A stretch of 39,261 bases of DNA, taken from the NCBI GenBank assembly GCA_002793015.1, contig PFPK01000046.1:1-39261 (forward strand), in the 5' to 3' direction. Below, piece after piece: positions 8,313 to 36,925 of this stretch. The translations under genes and the position numbers were made by a program. The notes beneath the pieces were generated by a model. That model was given only the letters and a program-made list of their open reading frames with translations, ran no database searches and was not told the DNA's origin. How positions within the stretch are numbered: position 1 is the stretch's first letter; each line of letters begins with the position of its first letter. The stretch comes from Candidatus Magasanikbacteria bacterium CG_4_10_14_0_2_um_filter_37_12. Its GTDB lineage: Bacteria > Patescibacteriota > Patescibacteriia > Magasanikbacterales > UBA922.

Positions 8313-8342
8313 AAAAAATTCGCTATGGCAAGCGAATTTTTA
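8313..8342 (-). terminator. Intrinsic terminator downstream of the tRNA-Asn gene
   Basis: The stem pairs aaaattcgct (8315..8324) with agcgaatttt (8331..8340) around a 6-nt loop. A U-run follows on the minus strand. Confidence 0.55.
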
Positions 8343-8359
8343 AAGTTTTCTAACTTTTG

Positions 8360-8742
8360 CTCGGTGGGCGAGATTCGAACTCGCGACCAATTGGTTACAC
8401 TTGTCTTCTGGTTTCCCAAAAGGATGGACTATATTATCACCCTTGCCAAAAATCTCGATTTGACCGAGAAGCGTGTGGGTGCGAGGCGCTTCCCCACCCC
8501 GATGAACATCAGGGGAGTACTCCCTTAAAGGGATAGTCTCTGAACCTTCCTTTTCATGTCTCACACTACGCCAGAAATCTATCCGCAACGTCAAGAAATG
8601 AAAAGGCTTGGCTGCTGATTACCCACTCTGCATAACAGAGTTCAGGCTTCCAGCAGTTCACCTCGTTATCATCCCGATATTACTATCGGGAGCTGCTATA
8701 TATTGTTTACAGCCAACTGCTCTACCACTGAGCTACCACCGA
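8360..8742 (-). tRNA. tRNA-Asn(GUU) interrupted by a group I intron in the anticodon loop; no encoded CCA
   Basis: Exon 1 (8742..8709) reads TCGGTGG TA GCTC AGTGGTA GAGC A GTTGG CTGT. Exon 2 (8397..8360) reads TAA CCAAT TGGTC GCGAG TTCGAAT CTCGC CCACCGA G. Joined, they form a 72-nt cloverleaf with the loop CT-GTT-AA, a U1-A72 pair and a G73 discriminator, as in E. coli and B. subtilis tRNA-Asn. Confidence 0.85.
8398..8708 (-). ncRNA. Group I self-splicing intron (311 nt, no ORF), resembling the cyanobacterial tRNA-Leu-type (IC3-like) introns
   Basis: P1 pairs exon GGCUGU with the intron guide GCAGCU, with a terminal U.G pair. P2 is CCCGAUA-GUAA-UAUCGGG. P4 is CUGCUG/CAGCAG, P5 is CUCUG/CAGAG, and P6 is CCUUUUCAU/AUGAAAAGG. 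The conserved blocks CAGCCAAGCC, GGUUCAGAGACUA (P7) and AUAUAGUCC (P7') are present. The intron ends in G (..AAGUG). Confidence 0.8.
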
Positions 8743-8823
8743 ATATGTCGTATGATCTTTTGTATAAAAAGGTCGGATATATAATACTAAAAAATATACA
8801 AGATGTCAATAGATTTTTAAGAT

Positions 8824-10224: not shown

Positions 10225-10497
10225 TTACAGATTTTTATAAATATCGTGTTTACCTATTGAAATAAACAAAATATCACCATTTTTTTGACGTTTGAAAATT
10301 GTTCTATAATTTTTATTTAGTGATATTGACCATAGAAAATTCAAGTCGCCATGTAATTGATGAAGTCTGAGAGAGTGATGAAGAGGATTGAGTCTAAATA
10401 TTTTTTCTTTCTTTTCAAATATATTCAATATATCTGGTGATAATTTTTTTGCCTCCTTCAAAAATGACGGTGCATAAAAAACATTATTTACTATCAT
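10225..10497 (-). CDS. Type II toxin, RelE/ParE superfamily (YafQ/HigB-like mRNA interferase)
   Basis: The 90-aa ORF has the pattern HSLRLHQLHGDLNFLWSISLNKNYRTIF...ILFISIGKHDIY. It overlaps the upstream antitoxin ORF by 14 nt. Confidence 0.65.
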   Translation of the reverse strand: MIVNNVFYAPSFLKEAKKLSPDILNIFEKKEKIFRLNPLHHSLRLHQLHGDLNFLWSISLNKNYRTIFKRQKNGDILFISIGKHDIYKNL

Positions 10498-10729
10498 ATA
10501 TCTTCAATGCTTCAGTGATAGACGCAGCCTGTATGCACTTTCCTTCCTCATAATCTCTCTCAGTTTCTTCTACATCTTTTAAAAGCTGTGCAACGCTAAT
10601 CACGTCATTATCAGCTTCAAATAAATATTTTATATAACTGGAAACAGATGCAAAGCCTTTTTGTTTCGCTTTTTTTTTAATTTCTTTTGTTGTTTGTTGT
10701 GGCAGTGATAAACTCAATACTTGACGCAT
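10484..10729 (-). CDS. Type II antitoxin, probable ribbon-helix-helix
   Basis: The 81-aa ORF has an N-terminal RHH-like segment (VLSLSLPQQTTKEIKKKAKQKGFASVSSYIKYLF) and an acidic C-terminus. It lies immediately upstream of the toxin. Confidence 0.6.
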   Translation of the reverse strand: MRQVLSLSLPQQTTKEIKKKAKQKGFASVSSYIKYLFEADNDVISVAQLLKDVEETERDYEEGKCIQAASITEALKIYDSK

Positions 10730-17494: not shown

Positions 17495-18073
17495 TTATTG
17501 GCGTAAACTCAACTCGTAAACCACTCTCTCAATTTTCTGTACGGCACTTTTTGCTTGATCGAATTTGTTGCGCAGATAACTTGTTAAATTAAATTCAATA
17601 AGTTCACCCGTGATCTCAGCGGCCATTTTGCTGCACTTTTTTACCATATCTACATTACGTTCAGTCGCAGACTTGATAGCATAGCGATAGAGCTCTCCTG
17701 GCACGTCGCAAAGTCCAGCGATATATATTTCTCCTGGAATATTGATGCTCTTGATTTCATCAATTTTGTTAGTAGTGATAAATTGGTAAAACAATACTGC
17801 CTCCACATATTCTTCAAGAGCAGCTTTGTAAGCGCCTTCATCAAGAATTGCCTTACTATTTCTATGTTTTTTATTGAGTGCTTTTATAATTTTTTCACTT
17901 TCTTTAATTTTTTCTACCGCTTCTTTCATATTGTCACGATGCATAGCAAAGATGGCACGCTTGGCGTAATGGAGAGCGTCACCAGATTCTTTTATTACAT
18001 CACGACGAACCATTGCATAGTTTAAAATGTTATTTTTTATTTTATTGAGATAAGTTTTTTTTATTGCAGACAT
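17495..18073 (-). CDS. Translin-family-like protein
   Basis: The 192-aa all-helical ORF has EEYVEAVLFYQF...IYIAGLCDVPGELYRYAI. This fits the translin pattern Y.EA...F...Y..GL.D..GEL.R as I recall it. Confidence 0.5.
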   Translation of the reverse strand: MSAIKKTYLNKIKNNILNYAMVRRDVIKESGDALHYAKRAIFAMHRDNMKEAVEKIKESEKIIKALNKKHRNSKAILDEGAYKAALEEYVEAVLFYQFITTNKIDEIKSINIPGEIYIAGLCDVPGELYRYAIKSATERNVDMVKKCSKMAAEITGELIEFNLTSYLRNKFDQAKSAVQKIERVVYELSLRQ

Positions 18074-32096: not shown

Positions 32097-35000
32097 TCAA
32101 ACCACAATATTCAAGATTCTGCCTTTCACGTAGATTACTTTCTTTGGCTCCTGTCCGCCTAGCCACTTTACGACATTTGGTTGGGCCAGTGCCATGGACT
32201 CCACTTCGTCATCAGTGGCATCAATAGAGATTACAATAGAAGCACGAACTTTTCCATTGACTTGTACAGCCATTGAAAGTTTGTCTCCTGTAAGCTTATC
32301 TTCATCATAAGCAGACCATGCTTCTAAGGAAATGGAATCCTTGTGTCCTAGAATACTCCAAAGCTCTTCAGAGATGTGCGGAGCAAATGGAGCAAGCAGT
32401 GTAACTAGTGACTGATAGCTAGTGAGTAAAACTTTTTCTTGTTTATAAAATTCATTAACTAGCTCCATTAATTTGGCAATAGCAGTATTGAATCCAAGCT
32501 TGGACAAATCATCACCAACTTTTTGAATAGTATGATGAAGCTTTCTGTCTAACTCAAGATCTAACTTAGCATTATCACTTAATCTATCCTGCAAATTCCA
32601 GACACGATCCAAAAATCTCTTAATCCCTTTTACACCATTTTCATCCCATGGTTTGTCTTCTTCCATTGGTCCCATGAACATCTCATACATGCGCATAGTG
32701 TCTGCCCCAAATTCATTGACAACATCTGTTGGATTGATGACGTTCTCCCAACGCTTGCTCATCTTGCGACCATCTGGACCAAGAATGAGACCTTGGTGGC
32801 GATGGACGGTAAATGGCTCATCAAAATCAATGTAGCCAGCGTCATATAATACTTTGGTGAAAAATCTTGCATATAGCAAGTGTCCATTGACATGTTCTGG
32901 TCCACCGAGATAGAAATCTACTGGCATCCATTTTTTCAATGCTTCTGGTGATGCGAATTCTTTTTCATTGTGCGGATCAAGATAGCGAAAAAAATACCAT
33001 GAGGAGCACATGAAGGTGTCTAATGTGTCTACTTCACGTTTCCAACCTTTACCATATTTTTCTTCCACCCCATCTTGAAAACTTGGCGAATACGTGAGCG
33101 GTGATTGACCTGTTGGTTTGAAATCTACGTCATCTGGTAAGATAACAGGGAGATCTGATTCCGGAAGTGGACGCAAATCAGGTCGGACTTCTCGCATAAT
33201 TTCATCCAAAAAAGATGAAAAAATATTATACCCATGTTCAATATCAAAATGTCCAGCATCTCGTTCAATTATTATCCGCGCTTCTGGTATGTATTTTTCA
33301 AAATACTTTTTTGTCGCATCGCATGGAATATAAGGATCGTTTGTAGAAAGATATATTACAATTTCACCTACATTTTTTCTTATTTTTTTAAAATCTAAAC
33401 AATCTTCTTTATCTCCAAAAAATGCTAGGGCAATTTCTTTTTCTGCATCTCCCCAGCCTTCTCTTCCAAATCCTATATACCAATCTTTTGTAGGTGTAGA
33501 AGGTGCTACTAAAACAAGTTTTCTGAACTCCATTGTCTGTGCAAGTGCTAATGCTATCCAACAGCTTAATGAGCGCGCCGTAACAACGGTGTTTGTTGTA
33601 TCTTTCGATAATTCTTTTTGTGTTGCTTCAAGCCAATCATTAAATTTTGGATGCTCTGGGTGTGGTAAAAGAGGAGTTATCGATACAATGTGTTTTTCTG
33701 CAAGTTCTTTACTAATCCATGGATGAAAATGAGACTGTGGATCACTCCCCCACGCATGTAAATTCAAAACAAAATCTGGTAATTCATCAAACTTTTGACT
33801 TTCGGACTTTATGGACTTTTGACTAGTGAGCATCGGAATTGGTGCTCCCCAAAATCTCTGACGAGATACAGACCAGTCGCGGAGTTTGTACTGTACTTTT
33901 CGCTTCCCATGACCATTTTTTTCAAGCCAGTCGATTATTGCTGTTTTTGCTTCTTCTGTTGTGAGGCCGTTGAGGAAGTCGGAGTTGATGGTAATACCGG
34001 GTTCTGATACACATTCGTCATATCCGTCAAAATAGTATTTAACAAGAAGCCCTTCACCAGTATCATGCGGATAGACGTTGGATGTTTTGTTTCGCTCAAA
34101 TGCAGAAACAGCTTCTTCACGTGTCATCCATATATATTCGTAGATATCTTTGTCCTCGCCATATAACGCTACTTTTTCCTCATTTTTAAGTTGCACTGAA
34201 AATATTTTCCGTATGTAATGTTTTAGTTCTTTGGATTTTGTAGTCAAAAAATGCACCCCAACCTGTCCTTTGCATTCACCGGGCATATTATTTATATATC
34301 CTGTTTCCTCGGCAAATTCTCTTTTAAGTGTTTCATAATCTGTTTCATTTTCCTCTTGTGTACCACCAGGTAAACGATACAGATCATTCTTCTTTTCATA
34401 CATAACCAGCACCTTACCATCTCTTTCCAACAATCCGTAAACTCCAACACTCTTTTCTTCTCCTTCTAGCGGATCTCCAATATCTTTTGCCACTACCTCC
34501 CGAATCGGCAACCCAAACTTCTTCGCAAACTCAAAATCCCGTTCATCATGTGCAGGCACTGCCATAATAGCACCAGTGCCGTAGGTCGCAATAACATAGT
34601 CTGCAATCCAAATAGGAATCTCTTCATCATTGGCAGGATTCACCGCTTTGACACCTTTCAATTCAACTCCAGTTTTATCTTTTTCAATCTGCCGATCCAG
34701 ATCTGTTTTCTTTGATGTTTCTTCAATATATTTTTCCACTTCATCCCAGTTTGTAATATTATCTTTCAAATCCTGTACATACTGCCCCTCTGGTGCAAGC
34801 ACCATATATGTCGCACCAAAAAGTGTGTCCGGACGAGTCGTAAACACTTCAATCACATTTCGTAATTTCGTACTTTTCGTATTTCGTATATCAGCACTTT
34901 CACCAACTTCATAAACATTAAACTGTATCAATGCCCCTTCAGACCGCCCTATCCAATCCTTCTGTCTCTTGATGGTCTCGGCTGGCCAATCAATCCTGTC

Positions 35001-35621
35001 TAGGCCTTCAAGAAGTTTATCGGCATAATCAGTAATTTTTAAATACCATTGTTCCATTTCTTTTTGGATGACAACAGTATCACAACGTTCACAATGTCCG
35101 TCTACTACTTGGGCATTGGCTAGCACTGTCTTACAGCTCTCGCACCAATTGACTGCTTGCTTCTTGCGATAAGCCAAACCACGCTCGTACATGAGAAGAA
35201 AAAACCATTGCGTAAATTTGTAATATCCAGGATCGCTTGACCGTACAAACCGATCCCAGTCTACAGATACTCCCAGAGCTTTCACTTGTGAGACAAAATT
35301 TTCGGTAGTCTTATCAATAGTTTCTTGTGGATGGACATTAGTCTTGATCGCATAATTTTCTGCAGGAAGTCCAAAAGAATCAAGTCCAAAGACTTGCAGG
35401 ACTTTCTTGCCTTTCATTCTTTGATAACGAGCATAGATATCGCAAGCAGTGTACACTTCGGCATGACCAACATGCAGACCACTGCCAGATGGATACGGAA
35501 GCTGTGGCAAAATGTAGCACTTGTTTTCTGGCGTGACATCTTCGGGCGTAGCAAAAGTCTTGTGTTCTTCCCAATGTTTTTGCCACTTAGCTTCAATTAA
35601 TTTTGGATTATAATTTTCCAT
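32097..35621 (-). CDS. leuS: Leucyl-tRNA synthetase with two inserted enzyme domains (Nudix; alpha/beta-hydrolase)
   Basis: The landmarks appear in canonical order: HVGH (aa 50-53), CESC..CERC Zn module, TTRPDT, GTGAIMAVPAHDERD, YKLRDWSVSRQRFWGAPIPM, LPVILPDD, DTFMCSSWYF and KMSKR (aa 953-957). The total length is 1174 aa. Confidence 0.9.
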   Translation of the reverse strand: MENYNPKLIEAKWQKHWEEHKTFATPEDVTPENKCYILPQLPYPSGSGLHVGHAEVYTACDIYARYQRMKGKKVLQVFGLDSFGLPAENYAIKTNVHPQETIDKTTENFVSQVKALGVSVDWDRFVRSSDPGYYKFTQWFFLLMYERGLAYRKKQAVNWCESCKTVLANAQVVDGHCERCDTVVIQKEMEQWYLKITDYADKLLEGLDRIDWPAETIKRQKDWIGRSEGALIQFNVYEVGESADIRNTKSTKLRNVIEVFTTRPDTLFGATYMVLAPEGQYVQDLKDNITNWDEVEKYIEETSKKTDLDRQIEKDKTGVELKGVKAVNPANDEEIPIWIADYVIATYGTGAIMAVPAHDERDFEFAKKFGLPIREVVAKDIGDPLEGEEKSVGVYGLLERDGKVLVMYEKKNDLYRLPGGTQEENETDYETLKREFAEETGYINNMPGECKGQVGVHFLTTKSKELKHYIRKIFSVQLKNEEKVALYGEDKDIYEYIWMTREEAVSAFERNKTSNVYPHDTGEGLLVKYYFDGYDECVSEPGITINSDFLNGLTTEEAKTAIIDWLEKNGHGKRKVQYKLRDWSVSRQRFWGAPIPMLTSQKSIKSESQKFDELPDFVLNLHAWGSDPQSHFHPWISKELAEKHIVSITPLLPHPEHPKFNDWLEATQKELSKDTTNTVVTARSLSCWIALALAQTMEFRKLVLVAPSTPTKDWYIGFGREGWGDAEKEIALAFFGDKEDCLDFKKIRKNVGEIVIYLSTNDPYIPCDATKKYFEKYIPEARIIIERDAGHFDIEHGYNIFSSFLDEIMREVRPDLRPLPESDLPVILPDDVDFKPTGQSPLTYSPSFQDGVEEKYGKGWKREVDTLDTFMCSSWYFFRYLDPHNEKEFASPEALKKWMPVDFYLGGPEHVNGHLLYARFFTKVLYDAGYIDFDEPFTVHRHQGLILGPDGRKMSKRWENVINPTDVVNEFGADTMRMYEMFMGPMEEDKPWDENGVKGIKRFLDRVWNLQDRLSDNAKLDLELDRKLHHTIQKVGDDLSKLGFNTAIAKLMELVNEFYKQEKVLLTSYQSLVTLLAPFAPHISEELWSILGHKDSISLEAWSAYDEDKLTGDKLSMAVQVNGKVRASIVISIDATDDEVESMALAQPNVVKWLGGQEPKKVIYVKGRILNIVV

Positions 35622-35701: not shown

Positions 35702-36925
35702 TTAAATTTCCATTTTACTAGCCACTCTTTCGATAGCCTTGACAAAAGCAGCAGTGCGCATATCTATATTATATTTTTCTTTGGTTTCCCAAACTTCATG
35801 AAAAGCGTCAACTATTATTTTTTCTAATTTTTCAAGAATATCTACTTCACTCCAGTGTTCACCTTTGATATTTTGATCCCATTCAAAATAACTGACTGTA
35901 ACTCCACCAGCATTAGCAAGTACATCAGGTACAACTATAATACCTTTTTCTTTCAAAATTTCATCTGCTTCTGGCGTAGTTGGTCCGTTGGCTAATTCTA
36001 CGATACTTTTGGCCCTAATATTACCAACATTCTCAGCAGTAATGACATTCTCCAGAGCAGCTGGCACAAGAATATCCACAGCAAGCTCCAGAATCTCCTC
36101 ATTTGAAATTGCCTCTGTACTACCAAAACCAACTACCGAACCAGTCTTTTCTTTATACACAGTCAAGGCACTTATATCTAGTCCATCATCTGATTTGATT
36201 CCCCCTTTGGAATCACTAACCGCCACAATCTTGTACCCCATCTCAGCCAAAATCTTGGCCATAAAGCTACCAGCATTACCAAATCCCTGAATAGCCACAG
36301 TAGTCTCGCTTGGTACTAGGCCAAGTTTAGTAGCCAATTCTCTGGTGCAATAAGCTCCGCCTTGAGCAGTTGAAAATCCCCTACCTTCTGAACCGCCCTG
36401 CTCAATTGGCTTACCAGTGATTACTCCTGGATCTGAGTGACCAACCAGCTTTTCATATTCATCACGCATCCAAGCCATGATCTGAGGAGTAGTATAAACA
36501 TCTGGTGCTGGAATATCCTTATCAGACCCGATATCACGCCAAATCTTCTCTATATATCCTCGTGACAATCTTTCTATTTCTCCTTCAGACAGTTCCTTTG
36601 GATTGACAATAATACCACCCTTTCCACCACCCATCGGGATATTGACTGTCGCACACTTGACCATCATCCAAAAAGAAAGAGCCTTCACTTCTTCAAGAGA
36701 AACGTTCCAGTGATAGCGAATACCGCCTTTGTAAGGCCCAAGAGCGTTATTGTATTGGCTTCTAAAGCCTGTAAATACTTTGGTGGAGCCATTATCCATT
36801 TTGACAGGAATAGATACTGTGAGAACTCTCTCAGGGCTCTTCAAAATCTCATGTACATCGGAATTCAAATTTATAATTTTGGAAGCATTATCAAGTTGCT
36901 TCATGGCATTTTCAAACTGGTTCAT
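35702..36925 (-). CDS. gdhA: Glutamate dehydrogenase (Glu/Leu/Phe/Val dehydrogenase family)
   Basis: It has KGGIRYH, PMGGGKGG and the dinucleotide fold IQGFGNAGS. The length is 407 aa. Confidence 0.85.
   Translation of the reverse strand: MNQFENAMKQLDNASKIINLNSDVHEILKSPERVLTVSIPVKMDNGSTKVFTGFRSQYNNALGPYKGGIRYHWNVSLEEVKALSFWMMVKCATVNIPMGGGKGGIIVNPKELSEGEIERLSRGYIEKIWRDIGSDKDIPAPDVYTTPQIMAWMRDEYEKLVGHSDPGVITGKPIEQGGSEGRGFSTAQGGAYCTRELATKLGLVPSETTVAIQGFGNAGSFMAKILAEMGYKIVAVSDSKGGIKSDDGLDISALTVYKEKTGSVVGFGSTEAISNEEILELAVDILVPAALENVITAENVGNIRAKSIVELANGPTTPEADEILKEKGIIVVPDVLANAGGVTVSYFEWDQNIKGEHWSEVDILEKLEKIIVDAFHEVWETKEKYNIDMRTAAFVKAIERVASKMEI

Follow-up and report, generated by a model that had tools for sequence, protein, structure and literature searches.

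A group I intron inside the anticodon of a tRNA-Asn(GUU) gene from a Patescibacteria contig and its family of related introns

We herein analyze a 39,261-nt stretch of DNA (hereafter, the window; contig PFPK01000046.1 of Candidatus Magasanikbacteria bacterium CG_4_10_14_0_2_um_filter_37_12), in which a tRNA-Asn(GUU) gene located at 8742..8360 on the minus strand is split by 311 nt. Our results suggest that this is very probably a live gene, interrupted between U35 and U36 by a catalytically intact group I intron that carries no open reading frame (ORF). The RF00028 group I intron model of Rfam matches 8718..8405 (minus strand) over its full length (model positions 1-253) with 67.5 bits (E 3.6e-15; gathering score, 50 bits), and it is the sole non-tRNA Rfam match within the window. 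ARAGORN, when given the joined exons, calls tRNA-Asn(gtt) with a 72-nt cloverleaf, the loop CU-GUU-AA, the pair U1-A72, and G73. Both results bear out a first-pass annotation of this DNA, which had proposed a canonical tRNA-Asn(GUU) in whose anticodon a group I intron of 311 nt separates positions 35 and 36, together with the Rfam search as a check; its coordinates, 8360-8742, are exact, and the minus strand was left unsaid there. Moreover, the intron retains all 40 columns that are invariant in 57 members of a family of introns found at the same site, and covariation supports the helices P1-P9, including the P3/P7 pseudoknot. The gene is composed of the following parts:

8742..8709, minus strand: 5' exon of 34 nt, tRNA-Asn positions 1-35, UCGGUGGUAGCUCAGUGGUAGAGCAGUUGGCUGU, ending in GGCUGU at U35
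8708..8398, minus strand: intron of 311 nt, starting with AAACAAUAUAUAGCAGCU and ending in AAGUG
8397..8360, minus strand: 3' exon of 38 nt, tRNA-Asn positions 36-73, UAACCAAUUGGUCGCGAGUUCGAAUCUCGCCCACCGAG, from UAACC... to G73

The predicted spliced tRNA and the group I core

The splice junction is unambiguous, because only a cut after U35, combined with an intron that ends in G, restores an anticodon loop of 7 nt. Among the relatives, the base 3' of CUGU is variable and the G followed by UAA at the 3' end of the intron is constant; the terminal G noticed in the first-pass annotation is present at 8398 (omega-G). In E. coli, the identity elements for asparaginyl-tRNA synthetase are G34, U35, U36, and G73. 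Direct reading reveals that CCA is not encoded after G73 of the window tRNA-Asn. In the unspliced 39-kb window, ARAGORN reports tRNA-Gln, tRNA-Thr, and tRNA-Lys only, and it misses the split tRNA-Asn, as is to be expected of a program that does not detect group I introns. Neither ARAGORN nor Rfam reveals a second tRNA-Asn in the 39-kb window.

The minimum free energy of the intron is -112.8 kcal/mol, compared with -87.1 +/- 5.1 in dinucleotide shuffles (z = -5.07), and the thermodynamic fold by itself gives P2, P3, P4, P5, P6, P7.1, P7.2, P8, and P9. The probability that we are dealing with an assembly chimera or a chance resemblance is practically negligible: an 801-nt region recurs with 99.9-100% identity in assemblies made independently for different samples, so the gene is not an assembly artefact, and both the Rfam E-value and the family-wide covariation speak against chance; in addition, 0.00 matches to our search pattern were expected in shuffles. 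As annotated earlier, the intron holds no homing-endonuclease ORF; the loop of P1 is only 12 nt long and contains no endonuclease remnant. An 84-aa ORF that overlaps the intron (8340..8594, minus strand) was rejected as spurious, as it shows neither a Pfam family nor conservation, and no maturase-like ORF was found inside or adjoining the intron. The helical elements are arranged as follows:

8696..8691, minus strand: guide GCAGCU (3' strand of P1), with its G opposite U35 in the U.G wobble of the 5' splice site
8673..8690, minus strand: P2, CCCGAUA-GUAA-UAUCGGG, with the GNRA loop L2 and compensatory changes at 7/7 pairs
8665..8659, minus strand: P3 5' strand CGAGGUG, with its partner CGCCUCG at 8488..8482
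8544..8665, minus strand: P3 5' strand and the P4-P5-P6 domain, including a 40-nt distal extension beyond P6a
8534..8538, minus strand: P7 5' strand GACUA, inside the invariant AGAGACUA; expected guanosine-binding helix
8497..8533, minus strand: P7.1 (UCCC-UUUAA-GGGA), a GUACU linker, and P7.2 (CCCCUGAU-GUUC-AUCGGGG), extra hairpins between P7 and P3'
8427..8488, minus strand: P3 3' strand, P8, J8/7, and P7 3' strand
8398..8425, minus strand: P9.0 (AU/GU), P9 (CUUUUGG-GAAA-CCAGAAG) with the GNRA loop L9, the tail ACAAGU, and omega-G at 8398

Part of this core had been read by eye in the first-pass annotation. The GNRA-capped P2 described there is the helix CCCGAUA/UAUCGGG closed by GUAA, and the claimed P4 is present in the same register (UGCUGG/UCAGCA in the window). 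Two further helices exist but needed renaming: CUCUG/CAGAG is not P5 proper but P5a, a distal extension of the short conserved CC/GG of P5, whereas the 9-bp helix CCUUUUCAU/AUGAAAAGG is P6a, distal to the conserved P6 (GCC/GGU) and followed by a 40-nt tip. The P1 helix GGCUGU/GCAGCU with its U.G pair holds for the window and its sub-lineage, but family-wide CUGU/GCAG alone is conserved. The blocks CAGCCAAGCC, GGUUCAGAGACUA, and AUAUAGUCC are all present in the window intron and match the RF00028 consensus. P3, P7, P8, P9.0, P9, and the two hairpins between P7 and P3' were not listed earlier; P8 consists of CACCC/GGGUG around an inner hairpin, J8/7 is AUAAUA, and the P7 3' strand is UAGUC (8431..8427). 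A conserved P10 was rejected, since in the window UAA, with which the 3' exon begins, could form only 2 pairs (UA/UA) with the nucleotides located 5' of the guide; family-wide, RNAalifold pairs the candidate P10 position with the first intron base instead. As a separate observation, the inner hairpin of P8 (UCUCGGUCAAAUCGAGA, 8453-8469, minus strand) is followed by UUUUU and was flagged as terminator-like, and a hairpin plus U run is kept at this position across the sub-lineage.

Covariation was assessed in three sets of sequences. In the first one, comprising 34 short relatives with the window excluded, RNAalifold recovered the anticodon stem, P1, P2, P4, P5, P6, P7, P7.1, P8, and P9.0, with compensatory changes in 31/45 pairs; as P3 and P7 cross, forming a pseudoknot, P3 was scored by explicit pair counting rather than by RNAalifold. 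In the second one, the window structure, including the P3 pseudoknot, was projected on 57 sequences, and the 3' partners slid by 1-3 columns served as a control. Here, 85.1% of the cells were paired vs. 35-45% in the slid controls, and the covariation score of 0.358 (0.05-0.12 in the controls) was reached by 0/500 shuffles. In the window sub-lineage (21 sequences), 88.5% of cells were paired vs. 38-52% after sliding, and P2, P5a, P6a, and P9 were compensated at every pair. For individual helices, pairing reached 92.5-100% in P3 (3/7 pairs covary), 99% in P4, 83-84% in P6a, 91-99% in P8, and 98.6% in P9 of the sub-lineage (7/7 pairs compensated); P9.0 covaries as well, and compensatory changes were found in each of P4, P6, P8, and P9. 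P7 is invariant (57/57 sequences), which speaks neither for nor against this helix.

The invariant elements comprise GCAGC (57/57), AGAGACUA, AUAUAGUCC, and omega-G followed by UAA (57/57), although the last columns were fixed by the search pattern and hence are not independent evidence for the relatives. The U.G pair at the splice site is found in 50/52 aligned cells (C-G in 2; 5 sequences are gapped) and in 21/21 sequences of the sub-lineage. Family-wide, no covariation with the guide is seen at exon positions -5 and -6; the 6-bp P1 is universal in the sub-lineage, where these exon bases were preset by the search pattern. Both GNRA loops, L2 and L9, are conserved in the family.

The family of introns at tRNA-Asn 35/36

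We scanned GTDB species representatives with a pattern composed of ATATAGUC, 13-43 nt, G, and the tRNA 3' half from UAA, and obtained at least 120 loci. Among the matches listed, at least 91 are tRNA-Asn(GUU) genes that, once their exons were rebuilt, proved to be split exactly at 35/36; most of the remaining ones represent the same split gene with one stem mismatch or a cut by the contig end. The total of tRNA-Asn genes cut at 35/36 amounts to more than 100 species-level genomes. The view, expressed in the first-pass annotation, that tRNA group I introns are uncommon in bacteria is therefore to be restricted, as it does not apply to tRNA-Asn 35/36 within its hosts. Of 14 relatives tested, 12 score above the RF00028 threshold. 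The hosts among the matches listed are mainly Patescibacteria (candidate phyla radiation, CPR) of many classes, along with Omnitrophota and one Margulisbacteria genome. No introns at the same site of other UAA-starting tRNAs, which the pattern would catch, were present among the matches listed. Five Firmicutes matches (L011, L047, L049, L060, and L071) were discarded as chance pattern matches beside intact tRNAs. Judged from sequence, the window intron is a member of this tRNA-Asn(GUU) 35/36 intron family of CPR and Omnitrophota. Additionally, several bins labelled 'uncultured Gammaproteobacteria', 'Bdellovibrionales', or 'Pseudomonadales' (L013, L031, L044, L045, L055, L059, L062, L079, L086, L090, L092, L096, L100, L102, L113, L116, L122, and L126) possess exons and introns identical or nearly identical to those of Parcubacteria and Saccharibacteria, and the taxonomic labels of these bins look unreliable.

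One feature of the family is an insert of 27-126 nt between AGAGACUA and the P3' strand, which is present in 77/100 introns and folds as exactly two hairpins in 71 of these 77 (median z -3.0); in the window, about 45 nt between GACUA and CGCCUCG fold in this way. P7.1 has the form UCCC-loop-GGGA, the loop often being a GNRA one; its pairing amounts to 96-98% and is accompanied by compensatory changes, and in both P7.1 and P7.2 the shape is conserved while the sequence is variable. A minority sub-family (L083, L018, L102, L065, and L013) has introns of 199-235 nt without P7.1/P7.2 and with a different P4/P6 sequence, AUACCGUGGGAAC...GCGCCGUAGAGACUAGAUACC, and as a whole looks more Azoarcus-like; both members tested (2/2) fall below the RF00028 gathering score. 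P7.1/P7.2 between P7 and P3' are a hallmark of subgroup IA in the Michel-Westhof classification, whereas in canonical IC3 introns the P7 5' strand is joined directly to P3'. The window intron shares with IC3 the anticodon-loop site, compactness, a P2 without P2.1 or P5abc, and GNRA loops on P2 and P9, but not the direct joining of P7 to P3'. It appears to resemble IC3 in its core and, because of the P7.1/P7.2 insert, is not filed as canonical IC3.

The intron of Azoarcus sp. BH72 tRNA-Ile(CAU), an IC3 intron with crystal structures, likewise resides in an anticodon loop, is compact and ORF-less, and carries GNRA loops on P2 and P9; the blocks AGCCAAGC, GAAGGU..AGAGACUA, and AUAGUCCA are common to both. 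The two are presumably about 61% identical over about 190 alignable nt, a figure that serves as a lead only, as the Azoarcus query was a provisional sequence. They differ in the host tRNA (tRNA-Ile(CAU) vs. tRNA-Asn(GUU)), in length (about 205 vs. 311 nt), and in the P7.1/P7.2 and long P6 and P8 extensions of the window intron; the Azoarcus intron is inserted after position 36, that of the window after position 35. The cyanobacterial (Anabaena) tRNA-Leu intron, inserted at 34/35, is also an anticodon-loop intron, vertically inherited over a wide clade, mostly ORF-less, and missed by tRNA finders, but the window family differs from it in the host tRNA, in its CPR/Omnitrophota clade, in P7.1/P7.2, and in the HNH genes found in part of the family. 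The subgroup IA phage introns (T4 td, Twort) share P7.1 and P7.2 with the window intron; unlike in that subgroup, the core blocks, the tRNA host, and the compactness of the window intron look IC3-like.

Part of the family carries its own putative means of mobility. Among the matches listed, 30/91 family introns are 519-640 nt long, and most of these contain in the P1 loop a sense ORF of about 100-136 aa with the motifs CxxC...HH...CANCH (loci L014, L030, L031, L040, L058, L059, L103, L123, and about 20 more). In PHROGs, the product is an HNH endonuclease (PHROG 2255, E about 1e-30), whereas the Pfam HNH matches are borderline and above threshold in 1/4 ORFs. ORF-bearing and ORF-less introns coexist among genomes with identical tRNA-Asn exons, as expected under a homing cycle. 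These HNH enzymes of about 100 aa probably recognize the anticodon-loop DNA of tRNA-Asn, and they would be among the smaller intron-encoded nucleases. Several of the 519-640-nt introns also possess a TATAAT-like box near the 5' end. A parallel is the cyanobacterial tRNA-fMet intron with I-Ssp6803I, which is a mobile anticodon-loop intron with sporadic ORF-bearing and ORF-less forms, as in the window family. I-Ssp6803I is of the PD-(D/E)XK type. The enzyme of the window family, in contrast, is an HNH protein of about 100 aa encoded in the P1 loop, and the window copy is ORF-less. Within the tRNA gene, the anticodon region is the target of I-Ssp6803I (Bonocora and Shub, 2001, as cited in PMC3984707).

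Four viral contigs contain a split tRNA-Asn (L209, L210 on a 543-kb contig, L212, and L216). The one at L209:130-428 (minus strand; IMGVR_UViG_3300028299_000003, 76.6 kb) has a 226-nt intron at site 35/36 that scores 96 bits with RF00028; this gene ends a 10-gene tRNA array, and the contig, which also has tail-fibre, baseplate, and HNH genes, is probably a phage. According to a 2014 review, all phage group I introns then known resided in protein-coding genes (PMC3984707). The copies within tRNA arrays of phages hint at a way in which the intron could be transferred.

The history of the intron in the window's own lineage was approached with a metagenome scan, in which the pattern of the window 5' exon, TCGGNGG...NNNNGGCTGT with five positions open, retrieved 80 loci. 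Two of these loci, L170 and L180, have the exact 5' exon of the window, and both are interrupted, with introns about 76% identical to that of the window over the 3' half; the closest full-length introns (L141 and L137) are about 70% identical and are accompanied by exons that are identical or nearly so. All of the approximately 39 exons of related type are interrupted, and the 41 intact tRNA-Asn genes come from other lineages, in which the anticodon stems differ and CCA is nearly always encoded. Moreover, a radical-SAM gene, ftsE, ftsX, PpiC, and a Mur ligase gene flank the split tRNA-Asn in the window and at many of the other loci, at 45-80% aa identity; a genome labelled Patescibacteria (L127) has the same neighbours at its split gene, with an FtsE that is 73% identical.

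Hence, the host is probably an ultra-small member of Patescibacteria, and the intron appears to have been inherited vertically over a long term in the lineage of the window, and the HNH gene appears to have been lost there. We consider it rather unlikely that the intron arrived recently by homing or through a phage. Such an arrival would agree with the coexistence of HNH-bearing and HNH-less forms on identical tRNA-Asn exons and with the split tRNA-Asn genes of the viral contigs, including the one in a phage tRNA array. It is at odds, however, with the short P1 loop of the window intron and its lack of any endonuclease remnant, with the interruption of about 39 out of about 39 related exon variants, and with the closest introns having diverged to about 70% identity while sharing the syntenic locus and the (nearly) identical exons.

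Proposed splicing pathway and gene surroundings

The split gene is flanked by two putative expression signals:

8781..8809, minus strand: sigma-70-like promoter TTGACA-17-TATTAT, 11/12 consensus matches, the best in the scanned region
8314..8341, minus strand: hairpin AAAAAUUCGCU-UGCCAU-AGCGAAUUUUU, 18 nt past the tRNA

Relative to tRNA position 1, the promoter is placed about 32-38 nt upstream. The hairpin was scored as a terminator on the plus strand, and on the minus strand the same palindrome is also followed by a U run; it is likely an intrinsic, bidirectional terminator.

From sequence, structure, conservation, and general knowledge of group I introns, we infer the following pathway. Transcription from TTGACA-17-TATTAT to the hairpin 18 nt past G73 would yield a precursor of about 450-470 nt. 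Its C32-U33-G34-U35 would pair with the guide GCAG to form P1, joined in this lineage by G30-G31, and the U35.G pair would mark the splice site. The core would fold from P3 to P9 with the P3/P7 pseudoknot, stabilized by its two GNRA loops (L2 and L9) as well as by P7.1/P7.2. Guanosine or GTP bound in P7 would then attack after U35, whereupon omega-G (8398), placed by P9.0, would take over the pocket and the 3'-OH of U35 would attack before U36, giving the loop CU-GUU-AA. With a convincing P10 missing, the anticodon stem, which is intact, covaries strongly, and abuts P1, probably holds the exons together, like in the Anabaena tRNA-Leu intron; there, alignment of the exons by the anticodon stem was shown by Zaug et al. 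(1993, as cited in PMC3984707). RNase P, 3' trimming, and CCA addition would complete the tRNA. As for its origin, the intron would belong to a tRNA-Asn site-specific family that has spread, or is spreading, by means of the P1-loop HNH homing endonuclease.

Since the gene possesses a promoter and a terminator and lies within a conserved gene order, and since no intron-less allele was found among the approximately 39 related exons retrieved, we regard it as very probably live and dependent on splicing. Several observations weigh against this interpretation. The RF00028 score of the window is lower than that of 10/12 scoring relatives (54-102 bits), which we attribute to its long P6 insert and to the long insert that separates P7 from P3'. 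Furthermore, the first intron base cannot lengthen P1 (A opposite A), unlike in most relatives. Two strain variants from different samples (L003 and L005) differ from the window by one base over 2.2-2.6 kb, and this base is a C67-to-A change at window 8366 that turns the acceptor-stem pair G6-C67 into a G.A mismatch. The genome DNA inspected for tRNA-Asn amounts to about 42 kb, so an intact second copy may lie elsewhere, and the failure to find an intron-less allele in the window's exon lineage is a weak negative, as the collection missed the window's own contigs.

Together with the lineage-specific length of the inserts and the missing homing-endonuclease gene, the low score, the acceptor-stem mismatch, and the roughly 42 kb of inspected DNA are what one would cite for a decaying, non-splicing relic in a tRNA pseudogene, with asparagine decoded by means of another gene. 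We find this very unlikely, for all invariant core positions and helices are intact and the peripheral helices are held by compensatory changes in the sub-lineage; moreover, the gene lies between a near-consensus promoter and a terminator, the exons of sister species remain identical while their introns have diverged to about 70-76% identity, and no intact allele was found in the lineage.

A functional intron might, on the other hand, splice only with the aid of a host protein (a chaperone or a tRNA-binding factor), in which case P7.1/P7.2 might serve as a platform to which the protein binds. In vivo, many group I introns depend on protein helpers (PMC3984707), and the conserved shape and variable sequence of P7.1/P7.2, the short P1, and the apparent lack of P10 would fit such a dependence. 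However, efficient self-splicing is established for two related tRNA introns of compact form, those of Azoarcus and Anabaena (as cited in PMC3984707), the window intron has a complete core with two GNRA loops, and no maturase-like ORF accompanies it. We thus judge a need for a protein unlikely, and favor a live gene with a catalytically intact intron.

The rest of the window encodes housekeeping functions, i.e., leucyl-tRNA synthetase (LeuRS), TypA, Fpg, FtsE/FtsX, a Mur ligase, ComEC, and a P-type ATPase. LeuRS (32097-35621, minus strand; 1174 aa) carries about 420 inserted aa that separate the editing domain from the remainder of the catalytic core, and this insertion comprises one NUDIX domain (aa 390-511, E 4.6e-11) plus one serine-hydrolase/alpha-beta hydrolase domain (aa 621-802, E 2.3e-13); NUDIX and hydrolase domains inside LeuRS represent an unusual aminoacyl-tRNA synthetase domain fusion. 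Other genes on the minus strand encode a translin-family protein (17495-18073; PF01997, E 2e-22), here of bacterial origin, a glutamate dehydrogenase whose best-scoring models are those of archaeal GdhA (35702-36925), and a HigB-like toxin, the gene of which overlaps an 81-aa partner ORF (10225-10729).

Previous reports and significance

The first-pass annotation placed the asparagine host outside the classical list of bacterial tRNA group I introns, and tRNA-Asn is indeed absent from the 2014 review (PMC3984707). In the tRNAscan-SE 2.0 paper, tRNA-fMet and tRNA-Ile2 are the only hosts of such introns mentioned, and the program is stated not to be meant for their detection (PMC8450103). Hosts that are tRNAs were not treated in surveys of rRNA insertions in CPR or of group I introns in archaea, whereas Lui et al. 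(2021; PMC8172020) noted that some tRNAs in circularized CPR genomes have group I introns, with no tRNA named. The 'group I introns' of 22-49 nt reported in cyanobacterial tRNAs (PMC5733544) are far too short for group I and were set aside as irrelevant. The general phenomenon, group I introns in CPR tRNAs, is already on record, and the novelty of our finding is modest. A 2025 preprint by Nakagawa et al. (bioRxiv 10.1101/2025.07.03.662931) is said to deal with group I introns located in the tRNA genes of Patescibacteria, and it very likely overlaps with the tRNA-Asn 35/36 family.

Given the distribution of the family, it is tempting to speculate that the sole tRNA-Asn gene is permanently interrupted across much of Patescibacteria and Omnitrophota, so that the decoding of asparagine rests on a long-inherited ribozyme; we put this forward tentatively, as a possible though doubtful scenario. 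If true, it would represent a second case like the cyanobacterial tRNA-Leu intron, in a hybrid architecture that joins a tRNA-type core to IA-type P7.1/P7.2, with still-active HNH homing and copies in phage arrays. As splicing uses guanosine or GTP, the supply of tRNA-Asn could then be tied to the nucleotide state of the cell. The finding would be of greater interest if the intron interrupts the only tRNA-Asn gene across both phyla. Should the split gene be the sole tRNA-Asn gene of its genome, a ribozyme would be essential in these minimal cells. Genomes with the intron seem to lack tRNA-Asn, because ARAGORN misses the gene and tRNAscan-SE was not designed for group I introns, and this apparent lack skews completeness estimates and views of CPR translation. 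Finally, more than 100 naturally occurring variants of a compact group I ribozyme, unusual in its added P7.1/P7.2, are available in the family.

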